Of a DNA stretch of 64,000 nt, positions 3,151-33,369 are shown piece by piece. Below the pieces are notes generated by a model, which saw only the letters and a program-made list of their open reading frames with translations, made no database searches and was not told where the DNA came from. Within the stretch, counting starts at the first letter, position 1. Every line of letters starts with the position of its first letter. The position numbers and the translations under genes are program-made. This DNA comes from Candidatus Foliamicus sp. (GTDB lineage: Bacteria > Pseudomonadota > Gammaproteobacteria > Steroidobacterales > Foliamicaceae), in assembly GCA_965249285.1 (NCBI GenBank), contig OZ252226.1, forward strand, positions 1,187,095 to 1,251,094, given 5' to 3'.

Positions 3151-3327
3151 CGTCTTGAATGCTCAATCGAGCGGACGCATTGTACTGCGGGGCGCCCCAC
3201 CAAACCGCGGCTTGCCCATCACAAATACCAACGGCAAGAATGAGGGCTCCCGAGATGAGCGACGTAAGGTTGCGATAATGCTTTGGAGCGATATTAGTCT
3301 CAGCAATGACACAAAAACAAACACCTT

Positions 3328-3378
3328 CCCCTGGGAACGAGGGCATCCTGCCCTCGCGGCGTCCCGCCCTCGCTCCAA
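3328..3378. repeat. REP-like palindromic intergenic repeat
   Basis: ctgggaacgagggcatcctgccctcg core, recurs at 7 other intergenic sites. Confidence 0.8.
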
Positions 3379-3405
3379 CCTCCTCCACGCACACCCCTAA
3401 GCCCC

Positions 3406-4080
3406 ATGAAAATCCTGCTCGTTGAAGACGAACCCGATCTGGCCACCGCCACCCAGCGTCTGCTGCGGCGCCATAACTACATCGTGGACATAGCCGAGAA
3501 CCTGTCCGTAGCGCGGTCCGCGCTGCACAACAGCCAATACGAAATTGTCCTGCTTGACCGGCGCCTGCCGGACGGCGACGGCGTAGAGTTGATCCATTTC
3601 GCGCAAGGCAACAACCTGACCTGCAAGTTCCTGGTGCTGTCCGCTCTGGGAGAGCTGCAGGAACGAATCGAAGGTCTGGACCTGGGCGCGGATGACTACA
3701 TGGTCAAGCCGTTCGAGCCGGAGGAGTTGTTAGCGCGAATGCGCGCAGCGGAACGGCGGCCGGTACCGGAAGTCGGTAAAGTTTTGGAGATAGGCGGACT
3801 GAGACTGGATTGTGATTCGCGCAATTTCGAGGTTGGAGGCGAGACGCTTGTCCTGCCCCGGCGTGAGATGGTGATCCTTGAGCAGCTCATCCATTCCGCC
3901 AACCGCGTAGTGGGCCGCGAGGTGCTGGAGAAGGCCATGTACGGCTACGATGAACAATTCGAATCCAACACGCTGGAGTCGCATATGTCGCGTTTACGCA
4001 AATCCATAGCTGACCGTGCCTGCGGCGTAAGAATCCACACGGTGCGGGGCGTTGGGTACATGTTGAGAGAAGATTCATGA
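3406..4080 (+). CDS. OmpR-family response regulator
   Basis: LLVEDE, LLDRRLPDGDG, ADDYMVKPF, C-terminal TVRGVGY winged helix. Confidence 0.95.
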   Translation: MKILLVEDEPDLATATQRLLRRHNYIVDIAENLSVARSALHNSQYEIVLLDRRLPDGDGVELIHFAQGNNLTCKFLVLSALGELQERIEGLDLGADDYMVKPFEPEELLARMRAAERRPVPEVGKVLEIGGLRLDCDSRNFEVGGETLVLPRREMVILEQLIHSANRVVGREVLEKAMYGYDEQFESNTLESHMSRLRKSIADRACGVRIHTVRGVGYMLREDS

Positions 4081-5471
4081 AGAAAACACGGCGCATTCCC
4101 CCCATATTCCGTTCGCTGGTGGGGCAAACAACATTGCTTTCCCTTGCGTTGCTACTGCTGGCGCTGGCCTATTTCGTGTTTCTGCCAATACTCACCATGG
4201 AGCGTCCCGATCCCAAACAAAGCACCCTTTACCTCGCAAGCAACAGTATGTTCCAAGTGCTGAACAACTCCGAAGAGCCCTTGAGCGCGATCGCGGACGC
4301 TGAAGATATGCGCGAAGTGATGGCGGAAAACAGCCAGTTCCGCCTCTACGTTCGGCGAGGCACCGAAGAGATGCAGATTGGAGCGCCCCCTCGCTGGTCA
4401 AGCGTTTTCTCTAATTCCGAGTTGTGGTCCAGTAAGGAAGAAGCAGCAACAAACGACTATACGCCCGCGAGTTCATTTGCCAGTTTCAACTTTAGCGAGG
4501 GCGCCGCCGTAGGCATGTCCAGTTACCGGCTGTACGAAGGGCAGGAATACTATTATGAAATCGGTGGGGTGGAATTCCCCATAGAGCGAGCGACCGGTTG
4601 GCTGGCCGGGCGGGATCCGGCCTTTTTCTGGATCTGGTCGAAGAACTTTCTGGCAGTGGGCGGCGCCATTTTGGCAGGGGTGCTTTTTCTACTCTATCTT
4701 CTGGTACGTTCGCTGCGGCGCCTGGCGAACGTTGCGCAATCGCTCGACCCGCAGGCGCCCAGCCACAGCCTGCCGGAGAAAGGGCTTCCTGCGGAAATAC
4801 TGCCGATGGTGCGTGCCATCAACAGCATGATTGGGCGAATTGACGAAGCCAACGAGGAACAGGCTTTCTTCCTTGCCGCGGCGGCGCACGAACTGCGTAC
4901 TCCGCTGGCGATTGTCCGAACTCGCCTCGAGAACCTTCCGGACGGGCCGGACAAGGAAGAACTGAAGGATGATCTCCGGCGAATGACGAGTCTGGTTGAT
5001 CAGTTACTACGCCTGATGAGCGTGCGCAACAAGGGCGCGCCTTCCCAGACGGTAGACCTGGTATCGGTTGCCAGGAATGTCGTGGCTGAACGGGCGCCGC
5101 TTGTGATCGACAAGGGTGTGGAAATCGACTTGGACGCGAACGGGGAACCAGTGCAGGTGCGTGGCGATGAACGCTTACTTAGAGTCGCATTGGCCAACCT
5201 TGTGGACAACGCGCTTTCTTTCAGCAGGTGCGGGCAGCGGCTTGAAGTGCAGGTGGGTCCGCGGAAAAAAATCACGGTCCGCGATCAGGGCCCCGGGATC
5301 CCGGACAAGGAACTGGAGAACATCTTCCGCCCCTTCGCCAAGAACCCGCCCAACCGCCGCGGGCACGGCCTGGGCCTTGCCATCACCCGTTCCATCATGG
5401 CGCTGCACGGCGGCAGCGTAAACGCCACCAACCTGAAAGGCGGCGGCGCCAGCTTCGCCCTCCAGTTCTAA
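4077..5471 (+). CDS. Sensor histidine kinase (2 TM, HAMP, HisKA, HATPase)
   Basis: AAHELRTPL H-box, NLVDNA N-box, DQGPGI, GHGLGLAI; ATGA overlap with the regulator. Confidence 0.95.
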   Translation: MKKTRRIPPIFRSLVGQTTLLSLALLLLALAYFVFLPILTMERPDPKQSTLYLASNSMFQVLNNSEEPLSAIADAEDMREVMAENSQFRLYVRRGTEEMQIGAPPRWSSVFSNSELWSSKEEAATNDYTPASSFASFNFSEGAAVGMSSYRLYEGQEYYYEIGGVEFPIERATGWLAGRDPAFFWIWSKNFLAVGGAILAGVLFLLYLLVRSLRRLANVAQSLDPQAPSHSLPEKGLPAEILPMVRAINSMIGRIDEANEEQAFFLAAAAHELRTPLAIVRTRLENLPDGPDKEELKDDLRRMTSLVDQLLRLMSVRNKGAPSQTVDLVSVARNVVAERAPLVIDKGVEIDLDANGEPVQVRGDERLLRVALANLVDNALSFSRCGQRLEVQVGPRKKITVRDQGPGIPDKELENIFRPFAKNPPNRRGHGLGLAITRSIMALHGGSVNATNLKGGGASFALQF

Positions 5472-5526
5472 CCTGGGAAAGAGGGCATCCTGCCCTCCGT
5501 CGAGGGCTGGAAGCCCTCGGTCCCAG
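5472..5526. repeat. REP-like palindromic repeat doublet
   Basis: cctgggaaagagggcatcctgccctcc...gccctcggtcccag between convergent genes. Confidence 0.8.
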
Positions 5527-5556
5527 CAAAGGCCTCGTCCCCTCCTTCGCACCTCC

Positions 5557-7512
5557 CTATTGCACCAGCACGCGAGCCACAACGGTCTCCGTTTGAGGCA
5601 GCAGGCACAAATCGTCCTTGCAGGTCTGGTAAGTAACCTCCGCGCTCACCTCATACAGCCCGGGCGATGTGCCGGCCGCAGCTTCGACCGATTGGCCCCA
5701 GGTAACGCCTTTGCCGATGTGAACGTCGTATGAGCCCTTGAAGCGAAAGGGCGGGCGCTTGACCGCGCCGGCAGCCTCCAATCCATCCGGCACGCTGAAA
5801 GTCACGCGGGTTTCTTTCATGCCCTGCTCGACATTCCGGCCGGTCGAAGCATAGACGTACCAGCCGTCCTGCATGTCGAGCTGAACATTGACGTCCGCAC
5901 TTCCACCCATCTCCAGCACTACGAGCGGGTCCGCCCGGACCGAAACCGGCGAAAATGGCTGGTCCGCTGAATCAGACTCTGCTGGATTCAGTTCCCCACT
6001 GCCCGTCCCGTTTTCGATCGTTGCGACATTGGTGGCAATCATCGGTGCTGCCTCAGCGCCCTTGCTTCCCAACATCACGTAAACGCGGCCCTGATGACGC
6101 ATCGTGAGCCAATAACCCTTGCCCATTTCATACAGTCTGCCGATTGTTTCGTCCCAGTAGGGCTGCTGCTCCACCGCAAACTGTCCCAACTCTTCGTCAC
6201 TGGGCATTTCAAAAGTCTCGCCCTCCTGCGCCCGCCGGGCGACTATTTCCGCATACATAGCACGGTATGTTTCCGCCGTCGGGCGGGGACGCGGGGGATA
6301 CAAGCCCGGGTCCTTGCCGGCGCTCTCCACCTTGTTAACCTCCTCCCATTCCCAAGACAATTCATCGCTGAATTCTCCGCCGTTGACCGTGGCCACGCTG
6401 GCGCCGATGATCAGATCGTTGACGCCATCCGCGTTCCAGTCGTCCACGTACACCCGCTGACCACTGCCCGGGATCGCTTTGGCGCCCGCTTCGGCCGGCA
6501 ACAGGTCAATGCCCGGCTCGAAACGATGCCCGTCCGGCGTCTTCACACCGCGGAAAAACGAAACCGCCCGGCTGTTCGGGCTGCGGTAGGAGTCGGTCAC
6601 CACCAAGTCAAGCACGCCGTCCTGGTCCCAATCGACGGCAAGCGGGTTGGGCTTGCCGTCGCCCGATGGCGCCAGGCTGCCTCCTGTCTGCATGTACTGC
6701 ACCTCACCTTCCGTGTACGAACGGGTTTGCAGCGGTCGCCCATTCACGTCCAGCAGTAACTTACGAACACCGAAGCTGGGATTCTTGGGTCCCCCGACGT
6801 TTTCGCTTACCCGCAAGCCACCGCTGCCACCAACGATCAGGTCGTAATCACCATCGTCGTCCAGGTCGCCGAACGTGGCAGAAGTGTATACCCAGTAGTC
6901 AAAGGTGCCGATATCGCCCGGTTCGCCATCGTAATCACGCCAACTGGGTTGACCGTTCGAGGCCGGGTCGCCTTCCTGCGGCAGCGTTTGGCCCGGCAGG
7001 AAGCCATCAGAGCTGCCTCGGAACCAGGTCACCTCGCCGGGGTGATACTGGCCGGTAATCATGTCCTTGTGGCCGTCGTCGTCCAGGTCGTAGAACATGG
7101 GCGTAAAACCGATGCAGCACCATTGCGGAATCTCCATGATGGTGTCTTCGGTATCCCTGGCCCACTCAAATTCGTCGGTGAATCTCGGTTCGGAATCAGT
7201 TCCTACGTTCAGGTATACGCGAATCGTGGAACCGTCCGCGCCCATCGGGAACTCCGGCCCCGAATTCGTCTTGAACTCGCCCACCAGCAGGTCGCGCTTG
7301 CCGTCGCCGTTCCAGTCCCACAGCGCCGGCGCCGCCAGGCCATGCTTCTCCGTTAGAACCGGCTTGTCGCCGGCCATCACCAGGAACGGTTCGCCGAGCT
7401 TTGGCGCGCCCGGAATGTCGGCCGGTTCAAGCTTCGGGAAACTCATTTCATCCGCGTATGCCGTGCTTGCGGCCAAAAGGGTTCCAATCAAAATAAGGCT
7501 GTTTCTTCGCAT
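5557..7512 (-). CDS. Secreted FG-GAP/VCBS-repeat protein with C-terminal DsbD N-terminal-like domain
   Basis: Signal peptide MRRNSLILIGTLLAASTAYA; five DxNxDGxxDL-type repeats; C-terminal GWYVY...TYQTCKDDLCLLP. Start moved from ORF-track 7881 to 7512. Confidence 0.75.
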   Translation of the reverse strand: MRRNSLILIGTLLAASTAYADEMSFPKLEPADIPGAPKLGEPFLVMAGDKPVLTEKHGLAAPALWDWNGDGKRDLLVGEFKTNSGPEFPMGADGSTIRVYLNVGTDSEPRFTDEFEWARDTEDTIMEIPQWCCIGFTPMFYDLDDDGHKDMITGQYHPGEVTWFRGSSDGFLPGQTLPQEGDPASNGQPSWRDYDGEPGDIGTFDYWVYTSATFGDLDDDGDYDLIVGGSGGLRVSENVGGPKNPSFGVRKLLLDVNGRPLQTRSYTEGEVQYMQTGGSLAPSGDGKPNPLAVDWDQDGVLDLVVTDSYRSPNSRAVSFFRGVKTPDGHRFEPGIDLLPAEAGAKAIPGSGQRVYVDDWNADGVNDLIIGASVATVNGGEFSDELSWEWEEVNKVESAGKDPGLYPPRPRPTAETYRAMYAEIVARRAQEGETFEMPSDEELGQFAVEQQPYWDETIGRLYEMGKGYWLTMRHQGRVYVMLGSKGAEAAPMIATNVATIENGTGSGELNPAESDSADQPFSPVSVRADPLVVLEMGGSADVNVQLDMQDGWYVYASTGRNVEQGMKETRVTFSVPDGLEAAGAVKRPPFRFKGSYDVHIGKGVTWGQSVEAAAGTSPGLYEVSAEVTYQTCKDDLCLLPQTETVVARVLVQ

Positions 7513-7696
7513 TCCGCATCTCTCCAAGAGCCACCTCTGATTACTATTTTCCATCATCAGGCTTACGCAATCCTTACGTCGGTGCACACGCTGAAGCGTA
7601 ATGCCCTCGTTCCCAACGTGTGCCCTGCGCGTCAGCACAGCGCCGCTCAATCTCGCAGCCAGCCGATGTCGTCGGGGCGTCGAGTAGGATGACGGA

Positions 7697-8833
7697 ATGC
7701 GAGTGGGGCTCTTGTTCGTCTGCGTTGTAACGCTGAATGGCGTGCAGGCGCAGGATGGGTCAAGCCTGGCGGAACAATACCGGCTCCCGCCCAGCCAATG
7801 GCCACCGTTTGTCGTTGACGATGGCGTGCAAGCCGAGGAAATCGGCCCCCTGCCCCCGCTACCGCCGGTCTCCTGGCACACGCCCGCTGCTGAACAGCTT
7901 GGGAAACTGCTGTTCTTCGATCCGCGTCTTTCCGGCTCAGGTCAGCTGGCCTGCGTTAGTTGTCACGACGTCCAATTGGACTGGGGTGACGGCCGCAGAG
8001 TAGCCGCCGGGCATGACCGCTTTGCAGGAAGCCGCAACGCCATGACGCTGCTCAACGCCGCTTATTTCGACCACCTTTTCTGGGACGGACGTGCCCAGGG
8101 GCTGCTGGAGCTGGCGCTACAGCCGATCCAGAGTCCGGCGGAAATGAACGCGGAAATACCGGCCATCATCTTGAAGCTCAAGGAGACGGACGGCTATCCG
8201 GATGCTTTTGGAGAGACGTTCGGGTCTCCCGGGATCACTGCGCAGCGCATAGCCGAGGCGCTTGCGTCCTACGTGCGTTCGATTGTCTGGTCCTCAAGCC
8301 GCTTCGACCGTTTCGTGCGCGGAGACTACGACCGTCTTACGGACCAGGAGATAAAAGGCCTGCATTTGTTCCGTACCCGCGCGCGCTGCATGAACTGCCA
8401 TCACGGTCCGCGCTTCTCCGATGGGCAATTCCACCATACGGGCTTGAGTTACTATGGAAGACGGTTCGAGGACCTTGGGAGGTCTGACGTCACCGGAAAA
8501 GCCGAAGACCGGGGCAAATTTCGCACCTCAACACTACGCAATGTCCATAACACCGGGCCGTGGATGCATAACGGCCTGTTTACGGACTTCACGGGCATCC
8601 TGCGTATGTATAACCATGGCATCACCTTCTCCGCCCGCCCGCGGCCCGGCGCCCCCGAGCTGTCGCCGCTGGTCCGCCCATTGGGTTTGGACAGCAGCGA
8701 ACTGGCCGCTCTCGAAGCCTTTCTCGATACCTTAAGCCGGCGCCCCTCATTTGTGGAGCCTCCCGAGCTCCCCGGATTCGATGCATCCGCCCACCGCTTG
8801 CAGACCGAATCCCAATCCAGCGCCCTGCGCTGA
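7697..8833 (+). CDS. Di-heme cytochrome c peroxidase (CCP/MauG family)
   Basis: Two heme motifs CVSCH and CMNCH, LFFDPRLS, FWDGRA, FRTSTLRN; signal peptide. Confidence 0.9.
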   Translation: MRVGLLFVCVVTLNGVQAQDGSSLAEQYRLPPSQWPPFVVDDGVQAEEIGPLPPLPPVSWHTPAAEQLGKLLFFDPRLSGSGQLACVSCHDVQLDWGDGRRVAAGHDRFAGSRNAMTLLNAAYFDHLFWDGRAQGLLELALQPIQSPAEMNAEIPAIILKLKETDGYPDAFGETFGSPGITAQRIAEALASYVRSIVWSSSRFDRFVRGDYDRLTDQEIKGLHLFRTRARCMNCHHGPRFSDGQFHHTGLSYYGRRFEDLGRSDVTGKAEDRGKFRTSTLRNVHNTGPWMHNGLFTDFTGILRMYNHGITFSARPRPGAPELSPLVRPLGLDSSELAALEAFLDTLSRRPSFVEPPELPGFDASAHRLQTESQSSALR

Positions 8834-8859
8834 GCACTTTTCCCGGGAGGGAAAGCAAC

Positions 8860-11421
8860 ATGAGCATTCATCTTCACAGATTTCCGGCCATTCTGTTGGC
8901 CTGCTTACCCTTTGCGGTCCAACCGCTCTTAGCCCAGGAACAGGATGCCCAGCAGGACGGTGACGAACAGGAAGAAGAGGCCCTGGTCGTACCTATTGAG
9001 GTAGAGGCCCCTGAGTTGCGCGTGCAGCAGGGGCGCAGCGAATACAACGCCGAGTTCATCGAGAACATGCCCACAGGACAGGGAGACTTGGCTGACTTGC
9101 TGCGGATGAATCCCGCGGTGGATTTTTCTCGCAGCTCCAATCTTGCCGTCGGCACAGCGACGCTCAGGCCTGCCGAAATCTCGATCCACGGCCAGTTGTA
9201 CTACCAGAATCTATTCCTGATCGATGGCGCGGACACGACCAGCGACATTGATCCTGCGGTTGCGGGCCGGCTCTTAAGCAGTAGTCACACAGGCGATGTC
9301 TACAGTATTCCCAGCCTGTTCGCACCGATAAATGGGAGTTCGCCGCAGGGCTACTACCTGGATGTCGAGTTGCTCGACAAAGTGGAGGTGTACGACAGCA
9401 ATATCCCGGTGGAATACGGTGGCTTTACAGGCGGCGTGGTTTCAGCCCAAGTCAAGTCATACCAGGGAGAAGATACGTTTTCCTGGCATTTCGGCATGCA
9501 GCGGGATGAGTGGGAAGAATTTCATGTCTCCGAAGACGACATCACCTCCAACGACCGGTTCAACGGCGTTTACACGCCCGATTACCAGAAAACCAACTTC
9601 GGATTCAGCATGCAACAGGGCCTTGGCGCGAATCTTGGGCTCACGCTGGGATTGACGCGGCGCCAATCCCGTTTTGCCCAAGAATATGGTGTGGGGCGCA
9701 CGGACATCGTGCGAATGGTCGAATACGAAGACCACATCGACAATCTGATGGGCCGCCTGGACACCAAGCTGGGCAATACCGATGCCGGTCTCTCCTTTCG
9801 TTACGCAACCCGCCGGCACGATGGCATAACAGGGACAAACTACACTGGTGCCTTCAAGAAGGATCACCAGGGCTACGGTTTCACCGTGGACCTGGGCAGG
9901 CCCGTCACCACAGGAATATTGGACCTGATACTCAGTCTTGATCGAACTTCCGATTCACTCGACAGCGAAACAAGTTTCTTTTCCGCCCACGAAGCCTTTG
10001 AGCGCACTGAACTTCAGTATGAGGGCGCCTTCGGGGACATGGAGCAACAACAAACCCGCATCGCTCTCAAGCCAAAATGGAGCCTTGATCCCATCAATCT
10101 CGGTGGTCGTGAACATACCGTCACAATTGGCGGTGAGTATCGCAACACACGCAGCTACTATGAGCGCCCCGAAGATATTGAATTTGAACGCTACGACTGC
10201 ATCAGAGACCTTAGGCCAGGCGATGGTTGTGTGGACCAGGACGGAAGTGGGGACAGCAATACAGGGGATGAAAGGTACGGCGCGCTTCAGTTCTTTTACG
10301 CGGGCAAGGTTGATCTGACTTACAACGAACTTTCGATCTACGCTCAAGACAATATCGACCTCGACAGCTGGCAGGTCAATCTGGGACTGCGCGGGGATTG
10401 GGGTAGTTTCCTGGAAAACTTTGACGTCTCACCGCGCGTCAGCGTGGCGTGGTCGCCCTTTGAAGACGGCAGCGGAGAACTTACCGCGGGCGCCAGCCGC
10501 TACTACGGCAGGAGCTTCTTTCGCTACCAATTGAACGAAGCGATTTGGGGCTGGCGGGAAATCTACTCGTACCTCATCCGATTTACAGGACGGCCAGGCC
10601 AGGAGATGCCTTGCTCCAGACCTGAGTTTCCGCAATGCACGCACCGTACGTATGACAATCGCAGTGGCCTTTTGGAATTGGACACACCTTATTCCGATGA
10701 GATCTCGCTAGGCTGGCGCCAAAGGATTGGCGCCTTCGAGGGTAAATTGCAGTTGCTGACCCGCGAGAGCCGCAAGAGCGTATCCCGGCGGCGCGAGGAT
10801 GACGGGCTTTACTACTACAACAACGACGGCCGTAGTTCCACGCAGAGCGCCACTTTGGAATTGACCAACAGCACACCGCTGGTCCTCGGTCCGACGGAAA
10901 CACGTTTTACGATGGGTCTGGGCTATCGCGATTCCGAAAGTAATGTCTACGACAACGATAGCTACGATGAAACGCTGGAGATCGACCTGATTTATTACAA
11001 GGATCGATTGATTCCTCCTGAAGAACTTCCTGCGTGGGACTACAACGTCCCGCTAAGCGTTCGCTTGAATTCCGTCACAGCGATTCCTGGATGGGGACTC
11101 ACCTGGTCAAATTTCTACATCATTCGTCGTGGTGGAACCGTTGCCGTGGATTTTGGCGAAGATTACGAGAGTCCGGACACCGGCGTGCGATATGACGTCT
11201 ATGAAGATCACGAGTTCGGCAGCTTGTTTACAATCAACTCGCGCATTCAATGGAGCCGTCCGTTGACCAATGGATCAGAAGTCTACGCCCGTTTCGAGAT
11301 TCAAAATTTGCTCGACCGAGTAACAGATACACAAACCCGTCCGTTTGCCGTAAGGCGAATGAGCCGGTTAAACACCCAGGGACGGCGCTTCTGGGTGGAA
11401 GTGGGAATGCGCTACTTCTAG
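8860..11421 (+). CDS. TonB-dependent outer membrane receptor
   Basis: 853 aa, signal peptide, plug region (YLDVELLDKVEVYDSNIPVEYGGFTGGVV), C-terminal GRRFWVEVGMRYF. Confidence 0.9.
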   Translation: MSIHLHRFPAILLACLPFAVQPLLAQEQDAQQDGDEQEEEALVVPIEVEAPELRVQQGRSEYNAEFIENMPTGQGDLADLLRMNPAVDFSRSSNLAVGTATLRPAEISIHGQLYYQNLFLIDGADTTSDIDPAVAGRLLSSSHTGDVYSIPSLFAPINGSSPQGYYLDVELLDKVEVYDSNIPVEYGGFTGGVVSAQVKSYQGEDTFSWHFGMQRDEWEEFHVSEDDITSNDRFNGVYTPDYQKTNFGFSMQQGLGANLGLTLGLTRRQSRFAQEYGVGRTDIVRMVEYEDHIDNLMGRLDTKLGNTDAGLSFRYATRRHDGITGTNYTGAFKKDHQGYGFTVDLGRPVTTGILDLILSLDRTSDSLDSETSFFSAHEAFERTELQYEGAFGDMEQQQTRIALKPKWSLDPINLGGREHTVTIGGEYRNTRSYYERPEDIEFERYDCIRDLRPGDGCVDQDGSGDSNTGDERYGALQFFYAGKVDLTYNELSIYAQDNIDLDSWQVNLGLRGDWGSFLENFDVSPRVSVAWSPFEDGSGELTAGASRYYGRSFFRYQLNEAIWGWREIYSYLIRFTGRPGQEMPCSRPEFPQCTHRTYDNRSGLLELDTPYSDEISLGWRQRIGAFEGKLQLLTRESRKSVSRRREDDGLYYYNNDGRSSTQSATLELTNSTPLVLGPTETRFTMGLGYRDSESNVYDNDSYDETLEIDLIYYKDRLIPPEELPAWDYNVPLSVRLNSVTAIPGWGLTWSNFYIIRRGGTVAVDFGEDYESPDTGVRYDVYEDHEFGSLFTINSRIQWSRPLTNGSEVYARFEIQNLLDRVTDTQTRPFAVRRMSRLNTQGRRFWVEVGMRYF

Positions 11422-11453
11422 CCTGCACGCCGGCGTAGACGTGATGGAACAAC

Positions 11454-11508
11454 CCTGGGAACGAGGGCGTCCCGCCCTCGACGAGGGCGGGACGCCCTCG
11501 TTCCCAGG
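11454..11508. repeat. REP-like perfect 27-bp hairpin doublet
   Basis: cctgggaacgagggcgtcccgccctcg-a-cgagggcgggacgccctcgttcccagg, 6 bp before the exbB start. Confidence 0.85.
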
Positions 11509-11514
11509 CACGCA

Positions 11515-12204
11515 ATGAACGGTTCCGATAGCCTCCTGGCGCGCATCGCGGCATTCCTGGATACAGGGGGACCGGTGGTGTGGTTGTTGCTGGCTATTTC
11601 CATCGGCGCGCTCAGCGTGGTGGTGCTGAAACTCTGGCACTTCTTCCGCTTGCGTCCCGAGCATAACGAAGAGCTGCCGCAGGCACTTTCGGCCTGGCGG
11701 CAGGGACAACACGACCAGGCATGGCAGATGCTCAAGACCGAGCGTTTCAGTTCGGACATCGTTGCGCTGGCGATGCGCGAGTTGGCGAGGGGAGATACTG
11801 ACCAGGCAACGCTAAGGGAGGAACTGGAGCGCGTGGCGCTGGCTAAACTGAAGGACTTGCGCTCCCATCTTCCGGCACTGGAGGTCATCGGCACGCTCAC
11901 CCCACTCCTTGGGCTGTTGGGCACCGTCCTGGGCATGATCACCGCCTTCCGGGGCATGGAAGCGGCCGGCAGCCAGGTTGATCCATCGGTATTGTCCGGC
12001 GGCATCTGGCAGGCATTACTGACCACGGCCATGGGCCTGTCCATTGCGATTCCGGTGATGGCCGCCTACAACTGGATGGACCGCAAGGCCCAACGTGTCT
12101 CCGAACAGATCAACGACGCCGTAACCCAGGTATTCACGCGCTACAACAGCAAGGGCGCAAGAGAAAAAGCAGGCCCTTCCACCTCTGTTCCAGATGCGGC
12201 TTGA
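11515..12204 (+). CDS. exbB: MotA/TolQ/ExbB proton channel protein
   Basis: PLLGLLGTVLGMI and ALLTTAMGLSIAIP transmembrane motifs. Confidence 0.9.
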   Translation: MNGSDSLLARIAAFLDTGGPVVWLLLAISIGALSVVVLKLWHFFRLRPEHNEELPQALSAWRQGQHDQAWQMLKTERFSSDIVALAMRELARGDTDQATLREELERVALAKLKDLRSHLPALEVIGTLTPLLGLLGTVLGMITAFRGMEAAGSQVDPSVLSGGIWQALLTTAMGLSIAIPVMAAYNWMDRKAQRVSEQINDAVTQVFTRYNSKGAREKAGPSTSVPDAA

Positions 12205-12592
12205 CCAACTGATTCGGCGGCGGCGGCGCGCCATCAGCATGGTCCCGCTGATCGATGTCGTCTTCATCCTGTTGCTGTTCTTCATGCTGTCCACCAGCCT
12301 GATTCGAGCCCGGGAGCTCCCGGTGGACTTTCCAACGCCTGATGCCGAACCTTCGGCCCAGGCGCTGAAGATTATCCGCCTGGAATCCGAAGACGGATTG
12401 ATTTCGTACCAAGGACTTCGCTACGCCTCTGGGGATTCCGAAGCGCTGCGTGAACTGATTGCTGACGATCGCCAGGCCGCTTACGCCCTTGACACGGCCC
12501 CGGGCGTCAGCACCCAGGCGCTGGTTACGCTGCTGGACCGCCTGACACTGGCCGGAGCGCAAAACCTGTCGCTTGCGGAGGCAACGCAATGA
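12194..12592 (+). CDS. exbD: Biopolymer transport protein ExbD (copy 1)
   Basis: SMVPLIDVVFILLLFFML motif. Confidence 0.9.
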   Translation: MRLDQLIRRRRRAISMVPLIDVVFILLLFFMLSTSLIRARELPVDFPTPDAEPSAQALKIIRLESEDGLISYQGLRYASGDSEALRELIADDRQAAYALDTAPGVSTQALVTLLDRLTLAGAQNLSLAEATQ

Positions 12593-13017
12593 ACCTCTAC
12601 AGGCGGCGCGAACCACCATCCCAGGACAACAGCATGATCCCACTGATCAACGTGGTCTTCCTGATGCTGGCGTTCTTCATGATGGCAGGGCAGATCCAAC
12701 GCTCGGATGCGGTCCGCATGGACCCACCGGAATCCTTGAGCCGCGCGGCACAGGGTGAATATACGGCCACCTTGCTGATTACCGCCCGCCAGTCCCTTTT
12801 CCTGAACGATACGCCGTTGCGTCGCGAACAGCTTACCGGCGAGATTCGCCGCCTGTTGGAGACAGCCGCAGACCCGCAAGGCGTTCGTGTGCTGGTCAAG
12901 GCCGACGCCTCGCTGCCGGCTACCGAACTGCGGCTGGTTCTTGCCCGTCTGCGCGCCGCCGGCCTCCTGCGGGTATCGCTGGCAACCGAGTCAATAGCAG
13001 ACGCATCCGCTGGATAG
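12589..13017 (+). CDS. exbD: Biopolymer transport protein ExbD (copy 2)
   Basis: MIPLINVVFLMLAFFM, LVKADA. Confidence 0.88.
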   Translation: MNLYRRREPPSQDNSMIPLINVVFLMLAFFMMAGQIQRSDAVRMDPPESLSRAAQGEYTATLLITARQSLFLNDTPLRREQLTGEIRRLLETAADPQGVRVLVKADASLPATELRLVLARLRAAGLLRVSLATESIADASAG

Positions 13018-13022
13018 CGCAG

Positions 13023-13799
13023 GTGCGCACCGAAACAAAGCTGTTGCAGTGGAGTGCTGCCATCTGCACGGCGGTGGCAATCCATTTTCTATTGGTAGTG
13101 GGCATGGCCGGGCTCAATCGTTACGGCGCTGCCGGAGAAGGCCAGGGAGGAATCGAAATCGGCCTTGGTCTGCTGGGAGACATGGGTGAATCGACGGAGA
13201 TCTCGGACGCGAGCGATATAGTCGAGCAGCCACCCGAACAGGCCCCGGAGCCACCACCGCCAGAGCCCCCAGAACCGCAACCCGAACCGCCTCCGCCGGA
13301 GCCGGAACCGGCTCAACAGGTAACCGAGGTGGCGGTGCAGACCGAGACCATTGAACAAACGCCGGAGCCGCCCGAAAGCGAGCCCGCAGCCGAGCTACGC
13401 GAAACGGCGCCTTCGGAAGGAGGCAGTAGCGGAGAGGACGCCGTTACGCAAAGGCGCCGGTCCTCCGGATCGGGAGATTCGCCACGCGCGGGGGGTTCCC
13501 CCGGCCGTCAGGCAGCATACAGTGCGACCCTGGCCGCACAGCTGAACCGCTACAAGCACTACCCCATGGCTGCCCGCCGCGCCCGCCAGGAAGGCACTGC
13601 CACTCTCTCGCTGCTTATCCGGCGAGACGGCAGCGTTGCCGACTTCAGTATCAGCAAAAGTTCGGGCGTGGAAGCGCTGGATGCCGCGGTCTTGCGAATG
13701 CTGGAACGCGCGCAACCCTTGCCGGCTTTCCCGGCATCAATGACGGAAGACGAATTGCGTGTCGACTTCCCCGTTTCATTTTCGCTGAGTGCTCTATAA
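13023..13799 (+). CDS. tonB: Energy transducer TonB
   Basis: N-terminal TM anchor, Pro/Glu-rich linker, YPMAARRARQEG C-terminal domain. Confidence 0.9.
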   Translation: MRTETKLLQWSAAICTAVAIHFLLVVGMAGLNRYGAAGEGQGGIEIGLGLLGDMGESTEISDASDIVEQPPEQAPEPPPPEPPEPQPEPPPPEPEPAQQVTEVAVQTETIEQTPEPPESEPAAELRETAPSEGGSSGEDAVTQRRRSSGSGDSPRAGGSPGRQAAYSATLAAQLNRYKHYPMAARRARQEGTATLSLLIRRDGSVADFSISKSSGVEALDAAVLRMLERAQPLPAFPASMTEDELRVDFPVSFSLSAL

Positions 13800-13859
13800 A
13801 GGGGAAGCCAACGCCGGAATGTTTCCGGCACAATGTAATTATCAGCAGGAGAAAGTCCT

Positions 13860-15485
13860 ATGAACGCAAGAATCCTGGCTATCGCCACTGTCCTCCTGGC
13901 GACAGCTTCCTTCAACCCGCCGGTCGTGGCAGCGCTGGAGTCCCGAATCGACGCGGTGACCGTCTACCCCCGCGGCGCCGAAGTCACCCGCGTAGCCCGC
14001 ATAACTCTTACGCCCGGTTCCAACACCGTAGTCCTCGACGGTTTTCCGGGCGATATTGGCTTGAGCCGTATTCAGGCAATGGTCAAAGAAGACTCGGTGG
14101 AAGTGCGCTCCATCCGGCTGGATATGCAGGAACAGCGCGAAGCCTACGATGCCGAAGTCCAGCGCCTGGAAGAAGCCATTACCCAAACAAAGGACGCAAT
14201 CGCCGCAATCGACGATGAGATCGCCGCGGCGGAATTGCAGTTGAAGTTCCTTGAGGGACTGGCGCAGGGCTACGCCGCCAACGAACGCAGTGAAGCGGCA
14301 ACCGGCCAGGCGGATATTGCCTCCTGGCAGCAGGCCCTGGACTCGATCGGCAAAGGCGCCAGCGGAGCCATGCAAAGGAAGCGCGACGCACGCAAGTCCC
14401 GGCGTGAAGTGCAAAAGGACCTCTCGGTACTGGAGCGGGAACTGGAGAACAAGCTTGATCGGCGCGCAGATTCAGTCCGATTGTTGGTTTCGCTGGCGTC
14501 CCCATCAGCGCTTGAGACCAACCTGCGCGTTACCTACTTTCAGCGACAAGCGAGATGGCACTCCACCTATGCCGCGTACCTGGATACCGCCTCCTCCGAA
14601 CTACGCCTCACCCACGAAGCGCAAGTCAGCCAGACAACCAGCGAAGACTGGCAGGACGTGGAACTCACGCTGTCCACCGGTAATCCCGGCGGCGCGATGC
14701 AGGCGCCCGAGCAGGACAGCGAATTTCTGGATTTGCGGGACCCCCGCTCCGCGGAAAGCGCAGCGGCCCGTGGGCGTGAGTATGAGTTCCGGCAGTCGCT
14801 GGCCTTGCAAGAAAATGTTGTCATGGCAGCCAGCGTGCGTCCGAACCGATACGCGGTGATCTACCAGGCGTCCGAGCGAGCCGACGTTGCCAACGAAGCG
14901 GATCAGGAGCAGTCCGTTCCGCTTACCAAATATCGTTTCACCGTTGCGCTTGTAACTCGCACAACACCCCGTAAGAACGCTCGCGCCTATCTCACCGCGC
15001 GGTTCACGCAGGACAGCGAAACTCCCTTGTTCAGCGGGCCAATGCGAGTATTCGTGGACGGAGCCTACGGCGGTCTTGCGGGACTCCCGGAGCTGCTTCC
15101 GGGAGCCGACGCCGTGCTGCCCATGGGCCCGGATCGCCAGGTCGAGGTGCTCGTTGTCGATAAGGGTGGAGAAAAAGGCAGCGAGGGATTCTTCGCTTCG
15201 CGCAATGCAGAGTTGACCGATTTCCTGTTTGAAATCGTCAATCGCCATTCCCGGACGACGTCAGTGGAAGTAATCGACTACTACCCAGTGCCGCGTGACG
15301 AGCGCATAGAAGTTTCCGTCCCGCGCAGCGCCTCGGCGCCGGATGAAAAGGACCTGGATGAGCGTCCCGGAGTGCTTGCCTGGCGTAAGGAACTCACGCC
15401 CGGCGAACGCTGGCGAATAGTCCACCAGTATGAAGTGAGTTACCCGGAGGACACTACGCTGGCTGGACCGCGTTATGAGTTCTAG
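13860..15485 (+). CDS. DUF4139/DUF4140 (MuiA-like) periplasmic protein
   Basis: SRIDAVTVYPRGAEVTR N-terminus, coiled coil, QTTSEDWQDVELTLST, C-terminal YEVSYP. Confidence 0.85.
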   Translation: MNARILAIATVLLATASFNPPVVAALESRIDAVTVYPRGAEVTRVARITLTPGSNTVVLDGFPGDIGLSRIQAMVKEDSVEVRSIRLDMQEQREAYDAEVQRLEEAITQTKDAIAAIDDEIAAAELQLKFLEGLAQGYAANERSEAATGQADIASWQQALDSIGKGASGAMQRKRDARKSRREVQKDLSVLERELENKLDRRADSVRLLVSLASPSALETNLRVTYFQRQARWHSTYAAYLDTASSELRLTHEAQVSQTTSEDWQDVELTLSTGNPGGAMQAPEQDSEFLDLRDPRSAESAAARGREYEFRQSLALQENVVMAASVRPNRYAVIYQASERADVANEADQEQSVPLTKYRFTVALVTRTTPRKNARAYLTARFTQDSETPLFSGPMRVFVDGAYGGLAGLPELLPGADAVLPMGPDRQVEVLVVDKGGEKGSEGFFASRNAELTDFLFEIVNRHSRTTSVEVIDYYPVPRDERIEVSVPRSASAPDEKDLDERPGVLAWRKELTPGERWRIVHQYEVSYPEDTTLAGPRYEF

Positions 15486-31267: not shown

Positions 31268-32692
31268 TCAGGGATCGAGCGCATCACCAGGAAATTCGAC
31301 CTCGAATACTGCGCCTCCTTTGGGCTCGTTGTAAGCACTAACGGATCCTTTGTGAATACGCATAATTGCGGTGACGATGGCCAACCCCAGACCATGGCCG
31401 CGTTTATTGGGTGGATTCTTAAAGAATGGCTCGAATATCTGGTCCTTGTCGCCTTGCGCAACACCTGGTCCTTCATCCCTGACTGTTGCTCGGTTGCCGT
31501 CGACGCGTACGTGAATCGTCTTTCCTTTTGGTGTAAACGACAGCGCATTGTCTATGAGGTTTGCAATCACGCTCTTGATAGACTCGCGTTCGCCGAATAC
31601 AAGGGTGTTGTTGTCGGTCGACTCAAACGTCAATTCTTTGCCTGCCTGAAGTACCGCCCGGCCGCGTTCTACACAGATGTCCTCCACTACATTTGCCAGC
31701 CGGAGTTCAGTGAACTGATCTTCCAGCGTTCCGACTCTCGCGAGTGTCAATAGTTGCGTGATCATGGCCCCCATCTGCTGGACGTCCAGTGCAAGTTTTT
31801 CCTTAAGTTCCGAATCATCGAGTTCCTCGATTTTGGATCGATGAACGGCCAACGGCGTCCTAAGTTCGTGTGCTGCGGCAGCCACAAACATTGCCTGTTG
31901 CTCGCTCGCTGACTCGAGCCGACCGATGGCGCGATTGATCGCCTGGACCATTGGCGCAATCTCGATTGGCAGGTTGTTCTCGGGGAGTAAGATATGATGA
32001 CCATCGACACCAATCTGCGACGCCGCTTTGGAGACTTCTCGAACTCGGTTCATAAGCGAACCAAACAGCAGGCCGAATGCTCCGAGCATCAATACTGTCA
32101 ACAATACCAGGGGTACTGCGCGCACGGTCGCCATATCGCCTTCCAGCAAAGTCAGCTTGACTATGTCCCAGATGTGATTCCAGAACGGCACATCGGTGCG
32201 AATTCCTTGTACTTCCAGGTAGTACGCCGTGTCGCCGCAGCCGCCCATCTGGACAATCCCCGAACCAGCGTCGTCGCCAGCCCAAATTCGTACCGGCAAT
32301 ATATTGCAGCGCAACGAATCGTCGGCGCCAGATGAAAGCGCAACGTTTTGCCCAACTATTTGGTCCATGAATCGTGGATCGCCGGGCGCACTGGAATAAA
32401 CTGAATCAAAAGCACTGACGTAATACCAGGCGTCAGGGTTTCGCCGCATCATCACCTTCAACTGCGATGTCGCATCCCGTGTCATCTCCTCTGAACTATG
32501 GGGATTCGATAGCACGAGAACCGCACCAATGACACGGTTCGTTGCTTCTCTTTGAGGGTCGTGAACCAACGTATGCGAAATTATCCAAGTCCCTGTCGTG
32601 GCTACGAACGCGATGAAAAGCGTCGACACAGCTGCTAGTAGCTGAATCCGCCACCGAAGCGAGTACCATCCTTTCTTAGTTGATTGGCTCAC
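31268..32692 (-). CDS. Sensor histidine kinase
   Basis: AAHELRTPL, NLIDNA, DEGPGV, GHGLGLAI. Confidence 0.95.
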   Translation of the reverse strand: MSQSTKKGWYSLRWRIQLLAAVSTLFIAFVATTGTWIISHTLVHDPQREATNRVIGAVLVLSNPHSSEEMTRDATSQLKVMMRRNPDAWYYVSAFDSVYSSAPGDPRFMDQIVGQNVALSSGADDSLRCNILPVRIWAGDDAGSGIVQMGGCGDTAYYLEVQGIRTDVPFWNHIWDIVKLTLLEGDMATVRAVPLVLLTVLMLGAFGLLFGSLMNRVREVSKAASQIGVDGHHILLPENNLPIEIAPMVQAINRAIGRLESASEQQAMFVAAAAHELRTPLAVHRSKIEELDDSELKEKLALDVQQMGAMITQLLTLARVGTLEDQFTELRLANVVEDICVERGRAVLQAGKELTFESTDNNTLVFGERESIKSVIANLIDNALSFTPKGKTIHVRVDGNRATVRDEGPGVAQGDKDQIFEPFFKNPPNKRGHGLGLAIVTAIMRIHKGSVSAYNEPKGGAVFEVEFPGDALDP

Positions 32693-33369
32693 CCGTCGGT
32701 ATCCTCCGTAAGCATGTAGCCCAGGCCTCGTGCGGTTTTAATATATAGGCCCGCATCAGTCTCTTTGAGCCGTTTCCGAATCCGCGACACGTGCGATTCC
32801 AGCGCGTTCGACAATGGTGGCTCGTCAAAACCGTACACACGATCGATAATTTCAGACCGCCGCACAATTTGTTCCGGTTTGGTTACCAGCAGTTCAAGGA
32901 TGACAAATTCGCGCCGCCGAAGGTCAAATATTTTTCCGTTCACACGAAACAGTCGGCCCGCTCGATCATACTCAAGGCCACCAATCTCGGCGCGAGCTTG
33001 ATTGCTCGAGCGCGGAATTCTCAACATCGCCCGAATCCGCGCCAATAACTCTTTCGGCTCGAACGGCTTGACAATGTAGTCTCCCGCCCCTGAATCCAAA
33101 CCGGCGACCCGATCGTCGACATCCCCCAATGCCGAAAGCACGAGAAATCGCGGCAATTTGGTCATTGATTGCGCCTTTACGATTAGGCTTAGCCCGTCGC
33201 CATCGGGCAAACGGCGGTCCAGGAGTACGATTGAATAGTCGATTTCGCGGAGCGATGCCCAGGCAATTGATACGGATTCCGCCAGATCGACGTCGAAATC
33301 GTGCTCCCGCAAGAACTTGGCCGTGTTTTTTGCGAGCTCAATCTCATCTTCAACAAGAAGTATTCTCAT
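32689..33369 (-). CDS. OmpR-family response regulator
   Basis: LLVEDE, LLDRRLPDGDG, DYIVKPF, TARGLGY. Confidence 0.95.
   Translation of the reverse strand: MRILLVEDEIELAKNTAKFLREHDFDVDLAESVSIAWASLREIDYSIVLLDRRLPDGDGLSLIVKAQSMTKLPRFLVLSALGDVDDRVAGLDSGAGDYIVKPFEPKELLARIRAMLRIPRSSNQARAEIGGLEYDRAGRLFRVNGKIFDLRRREFVILELLVTKPEQIVRRSEIIDRVYGFDEPPLSNALESHVSRIRKRLKETDAGLYIKTARGLGYMLTEDTDG

Follow-up and report, generated by a model that had tools for sequence, protein, structure and literature searches.

A FusA/YddB-family receptor encoded beside a di-heme peroxidase-family enzyme and its own Ton motor in Candidatus Foliamicus sp.

The Fus system of Pectobacterium, which consists of the receptor FusA, the TonB homologue FusB, the M16 protease FusC and the ATP-binding cassette (ABC) transporter FusD, and the YddB/PqqL pair of E. 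coli are known as protease-associated import systems. Fus-type receptors are, to our knowledge, the only known bacterial route for importing whole proteins as nutrients. Two di-heme enzymes serve as a further reference: MauG, which acts in tryptophan tryptophylquinone (TTQ) biosynthesis, and MbnH, which acts on MbnP and whose gene lies in methanobactin operons, beside that of the MbnT receptor. It has been reported that FusA homologues without FusC often lie beside cytochrome c peroxidase genes, and the partner was treated as a generic redox-active peroxidase with a suggested redox role on the cargo, which it might reduce (Grinter et al. 2019, PMC6793856). Here we analyse a locus at positions 7697-15485 of a 64-kb stretch of DNA (the window) from Candidatus Foliamicus sp., whose host contig is a 3.2-Mb single-contig genome. 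The pairing of receptor and enzyme at this locus is therefore already published, and the locus is a further member of that uncharacterised variant: like the clusters of that study, for example those of Achromobacter and Bordetella, it sets a FusC-less receptor of the FusA family beside a cytochrome c peroxidase-family gene. What is new here is an invariant Tyr in the enzyme, a separate enzyme clade, a sub-branch with its own motor, the exclusion of a neighbouring DUF4139 gene and a recombinant receptor allele. It seems to us reasonably probable that the locus holds a self-contained Fus-like import cassette in which the di-heme enzyme stands in place of the M16 protease and would process the cargo oxidatively; the cargo, its link to iron and its oxidation are what we infer.

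A sequence-only reading of the window had described a peroxidase-led uptake operon of seven co-oriented genes with short gaps or overlaps, and this description is borne out at exact coordinates by the list of open reading frames (ORFs), Pfam and NCBIfam. The seven ORFs are all on the + strand, and their junctions go from an 11-bp overlap up to a 93-bp gap. The interpretation attached to it fared less evenly: a non-CcpA enzyme, its linkage to the receptor and the private motor stood, while the membership of DUF4139 and the assignment of the enzyme to MauG or MbnH did not. The core is a six-gene cassette at 7697-13799, which encodes the di-heme enzyme, the receptor, ExbB, two ExbD copies and TonB; the seventh gene follows it.

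7697-8833, + strand: di-heme cytochrome c peroxidase-family enzyme, 378 amino acids (Pfam CCP_MauG, 161 bits)
8860-11421, + strand: FusA/YddB-family TonB-dependent transporter, 853 amino acids (PDB matches 6OFR and 4ZGV; Pfam Plug, 27 bits)
11515-12204, + strand: ExbB (MotA_ExbB PF01618, 108 bits)
12194-12592, + strand: ExbD, copy 1 (PF02472, 62 bits)
12589-13017, + strand: ExbD, copy 2 (PF02472, 73 bits)
13023-13799, + strand: TonB, 258 amino acids, with a Pro/Glu-rich linker (TonB_C, 62 bits)
13860-15485, + strand: DUF4140/DUF4139 (MuiA-family) exported protein (Pfam, 69 and 140 bits; TIGR02231, 268 bits against a cutoff of 112.6)

The arrangement is beyond chance: the order of the first six genes is found again in six genomes of the same genus, in one genome from another family (G355) and on the metagenome contigs L050 and L051. 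Housekeeping genes flank the G355 cassette, with AFG1/malate dehydrogenase genes on one side and a convergent hydrolase gene on the other. All six cassette genes were found on L050, and five of the six on L051 by tblastn, where ExbD1 gave no match and yet the membrane-helix motifs of both ExbD copies could be located. A decayed cassette is present in another genome of the genus (L022, from G020, positions 7025-8335): an N-terminal enzyme fragment, a scrap of ExbD2 and tonB are left, the genes for the receptor, ExbB and ExbD1 are lost, and the DUF4139 gene seems to be split too.

When the receptor was compared with all PDB sequences, only 6OFR (1e-68, in two stretches, residues 51-852) and FusA itself (4ZGV, 4e-52, residues 29-849) came up at E<=1; we take 6OFR to be YddB by its fit to the description in Grinter et al. 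2019 (PMC6793856), where YddB is a FusA-like transporter whose family stands as far apart from the ordinary TonB-dependent transporters as does SusC. Pfam gave a weak Plug match only (27 bits) and no match to the generic barrel model, unlike for the ordinary receptors that we scanned. A signal peptide, an acidic N-terminus and a TonB-box-like ALVVPIEVEA stretch are recognisable, and no STN signalling domain was found at the N-terminus. Since 6OFR and FusA are the sole full-length matches, the protein is assigned by its sequence to the FusA/YddB family, and thus shares with Fus a receptor of the same distinctive kind. The family is rare: of 400 genomes sampled evenly across the class, 4 gave a match.

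A metagenome scan with the receptor alignment returned 74 loci, of which 63 could be evaluated and 11 had too little flanking sequence. In 46 of the 74 loci, that is 46 of the 63 evaluable ones, an enzyme homologue (39-60% identity) is the immediate same-strand neighbour of the receptor, so that the peroxidase does have a conserved linkage to this receptor family. The enzyme gene lies upstream of the receptor gene in the near clade (5 loci, with the order seen in the window) and downstream in more distant clades (41 loci). The 28 other loci comprise the 11 with short flanks, 13 of the classic Fus type, with TonB upstream and no enzyme gene, and 4 of other kinds. One scanned Fus-type locus (L064) encodes TonB, an extracytoplasmic function (ECF) sigma factor, FecR, an STN-bearing receptor, an ABC transporter and an M16 protease. 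In the FastTree receptor tree the Fus-type loci form a separate clade, and the type of partner is structured by clade as in the enzyme tree. A large share of the relatives of the receptor thus has a di-heme enzyme instead of a protease, and this branch is unstudied.

The comparison with Fus can then be drawn gene by gene. Both have a gene for a periplasmic processing-type enzyme adjoining that of the receptor; in the cassette this is a His/Tyr di-heme enzyme, and the M16 protease and the ABC transporter of Fus are both lacking (Pfam). Unlike Fus, the cassette includes a full ExbB-ExbD-ExbD set, and unlike Fus-type loci it has a receptor without STN domain and no pair of ECF sigma factor and FecR. 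Within the variant, the sub-branch of this cassette differs from the Achromobacter/Bordetella type in that the enzyme gene comes first and a private Ton motor is added.

The host genome holds further Exb/TonB clusters and a probable TolQ locus. Compared with the other ExbB/TolQ proteins of the genome, the ExbB of the cassette reaches no more than 40% identity, in partial stretches, whereas with its G355 counterpart it shares 55%. For TonB, none of the others in the genome matches better than E=0.33, whereas the TonB of the G355 cassette (8e-39), that of a Fus-type locus (8e-14) and that of a locus with receptor-then-enzyme order (4e-12) all do. Because the motor resembles cassette-linked genes and not the other Ton genes of the host, the term private motor, which came from the sequence-only reading, is a fair one: the motor travels with the cassette and is near that of G355. 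As in Fus, a dedicated TonB is encoded with the receptor, and it is nearer to the TonBs of Fus loci than to those of its own genome; it parallels FusB of the Fus system (PMC13253070). A separate TonB gene occurs in 14 enzyme-type loci. The two ExbD copies differ in their membrane helix, which has an Asp in ExbD1 (PLIDVVF) and an Asn in its place in ExbD2 (PLINVVF); this pattern is kept in the six orthologues of the genus and in L051, while L046 has Asp in both copies. An asymmetric ExbD pair is therefore implied.

A signal peptide is present in the enzyme, whose CXXCH motifs stand at residues 86 and 231. Its first 300 residues are nearest to canonical peroxidases (1IQC, 161 bits), in PDB alignments that stop before the C-terminal segment. 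When this segment is searched alone, MbnH (6E1C) and MauG rank at the top, and Tyr305 aligns with Tyr294 of MauG (3L4M) and with the Tyr of MbnH. A heme ligand of the Tyr294 type is conserved in MauGs, with Met or His instead in peroxidases (PMC7567364). This Tyr is invariant among the receptor-linked homologues (54 of 54), and Met is found in all 12 canonical references; from the alignment, the second (electron-transfer) heme is predicted to have a MauG-type Tyr as axial ligand rather than Met. His246 is likewise common to the Tyr-type groups, so the enzyme shares with MauG and MbnH two c-type hemes, the Tyr and this His; with MbnH it also has in common the nearby gene for a TonB-dependent receptor.

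The scaffold tells a different story, because the best superposition is on canonical enzymes and the pocket residues are kept, and it is therefore canonical-like. An AlphaFold2 (AF2) model with a predicted local distance difference test (pLDDT) score of 82 gives a template-modelling (TM) score of 0.86 against canonical bacterial cytochrome c peroxidases (bCCPs), 0.73 against MbnH and 0.67 against MauG. The best overall similarity in sequence and fold is thus to canonical CcpA of N. europaea (1IQC) and P. aeruginosa (1EB7/2VHD), with which the enzyme also shares Trp129, Glu149 and the distal His H106 at heme-His+16; we take H106, Trp129 and Glu149 to be the counterparts of P. aeruginosa His71, Trp94 and Glu114. 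Within the receptor-linked clade, His106 and Arg226 vary hardly or not at all. It is worth adding that the receptor-linked enzymes carry a clade-specific N-terminal extension that sets them apart from canonical CcpA, and an N-terminal Y-x6-WP motif (Y28, W35, P36), absent from the canonical and MauG-like references.

The earlier suggestion was to place the peroxidase among the CcpA, MauG and MbnH clades; in an IQ-TREE quick search it falls in none of them, and the 51 distinct receptor-linked enzymes form one His/Tyr clade of their own (SH-aLRT, the Shimodaira-Hasegawa-like approximate likelihood ratio test, 98), apart from the canonical enzymes (99), from the best MauG-like proteins (95) and from the MbnH-family proteins above cutoff (100; 8 members). 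The MauG-like references are only the best-scoring proteins, all below the equivalog cutoff, because no MauG equivalog above cutoff was found among the 301 sampled genomes. Each of the three identities was rejected. A canonical CcpA is contradicted by the separate clade and by the Tyr at the position where 12 of 12 references have Met. MauG proper is contradicted by an NCBIfam score of 204 bits against a cutoff of 443.85 (TIGR03791), by the separate clade and by the lack of mau-type genes, or of a methylamine dehydrogenase (MADH) partner gene, among the window ORFs scanned. MbnH is contradicted by 176 bits against a cutoff of 362.85 (TIGR04039), by the position apart from its 8 over-cutoff members and by a gap of 26 bp between the enzyme and receptor genes, with no MbnP-like partner gene. 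Membership in either of the latter two families therefore has to be given up, and the predicted fold, as said, is nearer to canonical bCCPs than to both. Only one other CCP_MauG gene exists in the genome (G000:C1:2423666-2424502, that is L124:2167-3003, minus strand); its 278-residue product has both CXXCH motifs and lacks the segment of about 70 residues that holds the axial Met/Tyr ligand, and the genome is thus without an intact canonical CcpA.

The canonical scaffold raises the question whether the di-heme protein might be a protective periplasmic H2O2 scavenger, co-expressed with an iron importer against Fenton damage and not acting on the cargo at all. The sequence and fold matches to bCCPs (1IQC at 161 bits, TM 0.86), the conserved peroxidatic pocket and the fact that the only other CCP gene of the genome is short and without the axial-ligand loop all speak in its favour. 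We nonetheless regard this explanation as unlikely, since the electron-transfer heme has Tyr, not Met, in all 54 linked homologues, a residue associated with MauG proteins (PMC7567364), since MauG-type enzymes are poor peroxidases that use H2O2 as oxidant (PMC11892367), and since the linked enzymes form a clade distinct from the canonical one, are linked to one receptor family and occupy the position of the protease. The invariant Tyr and the separate clade lead us therefore to predict that the enzyme generates an oxidant, and that it is neither a reductase nor a mere scavenger of H2O2; in this the partner, with its MauG-type Tyr ligand and its own clade, goes beyond the description of Grinter et al. 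2019.

Another target for such an oxidant would be the import machinery itself. The enzyme could be a maturation factor that modifies the receptor or the dedicated TonB, as MauG does on pre-MADH or MbnH on MbnP. Both of these are known to modify partner proteins (PMC11892367), the same major groups appear in the enzyme and receptor trees, the clade-specific motif of Y28, W35 and P36 could be a docking element, and no other conserved partner gene is present. Against this, we know of no such modification, the Fus-type relatives pair the same receptor family with an M16 protease and not with a di-heme enzyme (Grinter et al. 2019, PMC6793856), and not every member of the enzyme clade is linked to a receptor of this kind, so that a maturation role is, in our estimate, quite improbable.

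Coming back to the Fus-like cassette with oxidative processing of the cargo, one may picture its working as follows. The receptor would bind a bulky cargo, probably an iron-bearing protein or peptide; the dedicated TonB would pull the plug and let the cargo reach the periplasm; there the di-heme enzyme, activated by H2O2, would form a high-valent heme state and, by oxidising the cargo or the cofactor in it, might release the nutrient without proteolysis. MauG-type enzymes do use H2O2 as oxidant and form an Fe(IV)Fe(IV)=O state (PMC11892367). It is tempting to extend this scheme to the whole branch, and to hypothesise that the monophyletic His/Tyr di-heme clade is the periplasmic cargo processor of protein-importing FusA-type receptors, an oxidase-associated import system in which MauG-like high-valent heme chemistry, and not proteolysis, would strip the nutrient, probably iron, from the imported protein, and which in this sub-branch would have a Ton motor of its own; this wider proposal is a tentative one, which we would sooner doubt than assert. 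If true, it would give bis-Fe(IV) heme chemistry a new physiological role and add a new mode of nutrient extraction. The link to iron is hinted at by putative regulatory sites and genes at other loci of the branch: L051 has, 72-90 bp upstream of its enzyme gene, a Fur box with 16 of 19 positions (L051:8657-8675), a Fur-box-like site with 12 of 19 positions and the core AATGATAATTATT lies at a similar upstream distance in L046 (L046:8491-8509; 64-90 bp across both), and FecR genes are found at 10 of the enzyme-type loci and ECF sigma genes at 8.

Several points weigh against this reading and should be set out together. We know of no cargo, and of no experiment on any member of the enzyme-linked branch. 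Both the sequence and the predicted fold of the enzyme are nearest to canonical H2O2-reducing peroxidases, with H106, Trp129 and Glu149 kept. The cassette has no inner-membrane transporter by Pfam, nor does its G355 copy. The promoter of the window itself is without a Fur box, the best site there having 11 of 19 positions, and nothing in the whole window exceeds 13 of 19. On the side of the phylogenies, the peroxidase-family tree is a quick search and the receptor tree a FastTree one, and the linked enzyme group was collected by its linkage. When the question was asked from the side of the enzyme, an unbiased set of 400 genomes from the class yielded homologues of at least 43% identity in 6: in three (G355, G224, G436) the enzyme is linked to such a receptor and in three (G231, G389, G188) it is not, the receptor homologue of G389 being on another contig. 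A support of 99 unites two of the unlinked enzymes with one that is linked. We conclude that the pairing is common and old without being obligatory.

The seventh gene, at 13860-15485, encodes a clear and exported member of the family of MuiA (PA1494), as its TIGR02231 score indicates, and we know of no mechanism for this DUF4140-DUF4139 family. The sequence-only reading had made it a member of the system. In a search anchored on DUF4139, which gave 27 loci from species-representative genomes, the cassette precedes the gene only in the closest relatives (DUF4139 at least 69% identical), to which the decayed cassette of L022 can be added, and the gene stands without an intact cassette in L020-L040. 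Four loci of the same genus (L025-L028) have DadA-like, GATase, DUF4139, TPMT and pyrroloquinoline quinone (PQQ) dehydrogenase genes in that order and no cassette. As they keep GATase, DUF4139 and TPMT at the same site, the stretch of the window from ~3200 to 13815 amounts to an indel of ~10.6 kb between GATase and DUF4139, which holds a two-component pair, a divergent gene described below and the cassette; the block was inserted next to DUF4139, or was lost from beside it in the relatives. The last ~45 bp upstream of the DUF4139 start are shared with the cassette-less relatives. The gene is not beside the cassettes of G355 and L051, and it lies within 10 kb of the receptor in none of the 74 receptor-family loci, so that, of the proposed co-occurrence of peroxidase, receptor and DUF4139, the first two hold together (46 of 63) and the third falls away. 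DUF4139 is thus a resident chromosomal neighbour outside the cassette, because it is present without the cassette in the genus, is absent from the cassettes of other lineages and keeps its own upstream sequence. A false lead is thereby removed, the adjacency being a lineage-specific gene order.

One could still argue that the seven genes form a functional operon in which DUF4139 is an accessory of uptake, given that the gene is co-oriented, follows tonB after a 60-bp gap with no convincing terminator, and retains this arrangement in six genomes of the genus. In other lineages, moreover, an ordinary (non-Fus-type) TonB-dependent receptor lies at most two genes from the DUF4139 homologue in 4 of 13 cassette-less loci (L024, L029, L033, L040), where ~0.9 would be expected from the 31-88 receptors per genome, a figure that is uncorrected for relatedness among partly related loci, and two cassette-less loci (L023/L024) have a TonB_C/tetratricopeptide-repeat (TPR) gene directly upstream of DUF4139. 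This proximity is a general signal, and a weak one, in which the arrangements differ from locus to locus. Set against it are the cassette-less site of L025-L028, where DUF4139 stays between GATase and TPMT, the proximal upstream sequence that it has retained as its own, and its absence from the G355 and L051 cassettes and from the surroundings of all 74 receptors, and we hold a seven-gene operon to be very improbable.

In an AF2 model of the DUF4139 protein (pLDDT 80), beta-sandwich domains are arranged about a long coiled-coil hairpin; the fold search gave only weak and uninformative matches, to ribophorin I and to the MacA hairpin (TM <= 0.16). A PerR-controlled cluster of Leptospira, with TonB, ExbD, ExbD and ExbB, a receptor and LipL48 (PMC7567364), was considered as the same system with LipL48 as the DUF4139 protein, and was dropped as having no support in the papers searched. 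In another gammaproteobacterial metagenome-assembled genome (L030:3728-11614), a single case, genes for a LysR regulator, a Tyr-type di-heme enzyme from a different lineage, a metallophosphatase and a hypothetical protein are followed by those for a response regulator and a kinase, which lie directly upstream of a DUF4139 gene, with no receptor.

Five further features of the locus remain to be described.

3406-4080, + strand: OmpR/PhoB-family response regulator (Pfam)
4077-5471, + strand: sensor kinase (Pfam)
5557-7512, - strand: exported FG-GAP propeller protein whose C-terminal domain is DsbD_N-like (Pfam; start codon read from the sequence)
7562-7578, + strand: direct repeat CTTACG-N5-CTTACG (comparison of the divergent promoter regions)
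9113-11200, + strand: recombinant tract inside the receptor gene (sliding-window DNA identity, protein identities, GC profile)

The tract within the receptor gene is 88-96% identical in DNA to L016/L019 and 61-86% to L014/L015, whereas its flanks (the cassette genes and DUF4139) have the reverse pattern, with 88-98% to L014/L015 in most 300-bp windows versus 55-83% to L016/L019. The tract also coincides with a dip in GC to ~0.55. The reversed identities and the dip therefore suggest that an allele of this surface-exposed receptor may have been exchanged between species.

Upstream, the FG-GAP/DsbD_N gene points away from the peroxidase gene, and the cassettes of other lineages do not have it as a neighbour. 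The CTTACG repeat is recognisable in all seven promoters of the genus, in surroundings that are less conserved, and is unique in the window; in layout it resembles what we take to be a PmrA box. A looser form of the pattern occurred genome-wide at 4 sites versus 6 in the control, with no regulon signal. The target of the repeat is uncertain, because it lies nearer to the divergent FG-GAP gene and is retained in the genome with the decayed cassette. The two-component pair at 3406-5471 is a candidate for the local regulators; by NCBIfam the response regulator is nearest to PmrA/RppA and the kinase to heavy-metal sensor kinases, all below cutoff. A paralogous pair is found at 31292-33369 of the window, its regulator 52% and its kinase 45% identical to those of the first pair, and it adjoins the other TonB-receptor cassette of the window, a thioredoxin-lipoprotein operon.

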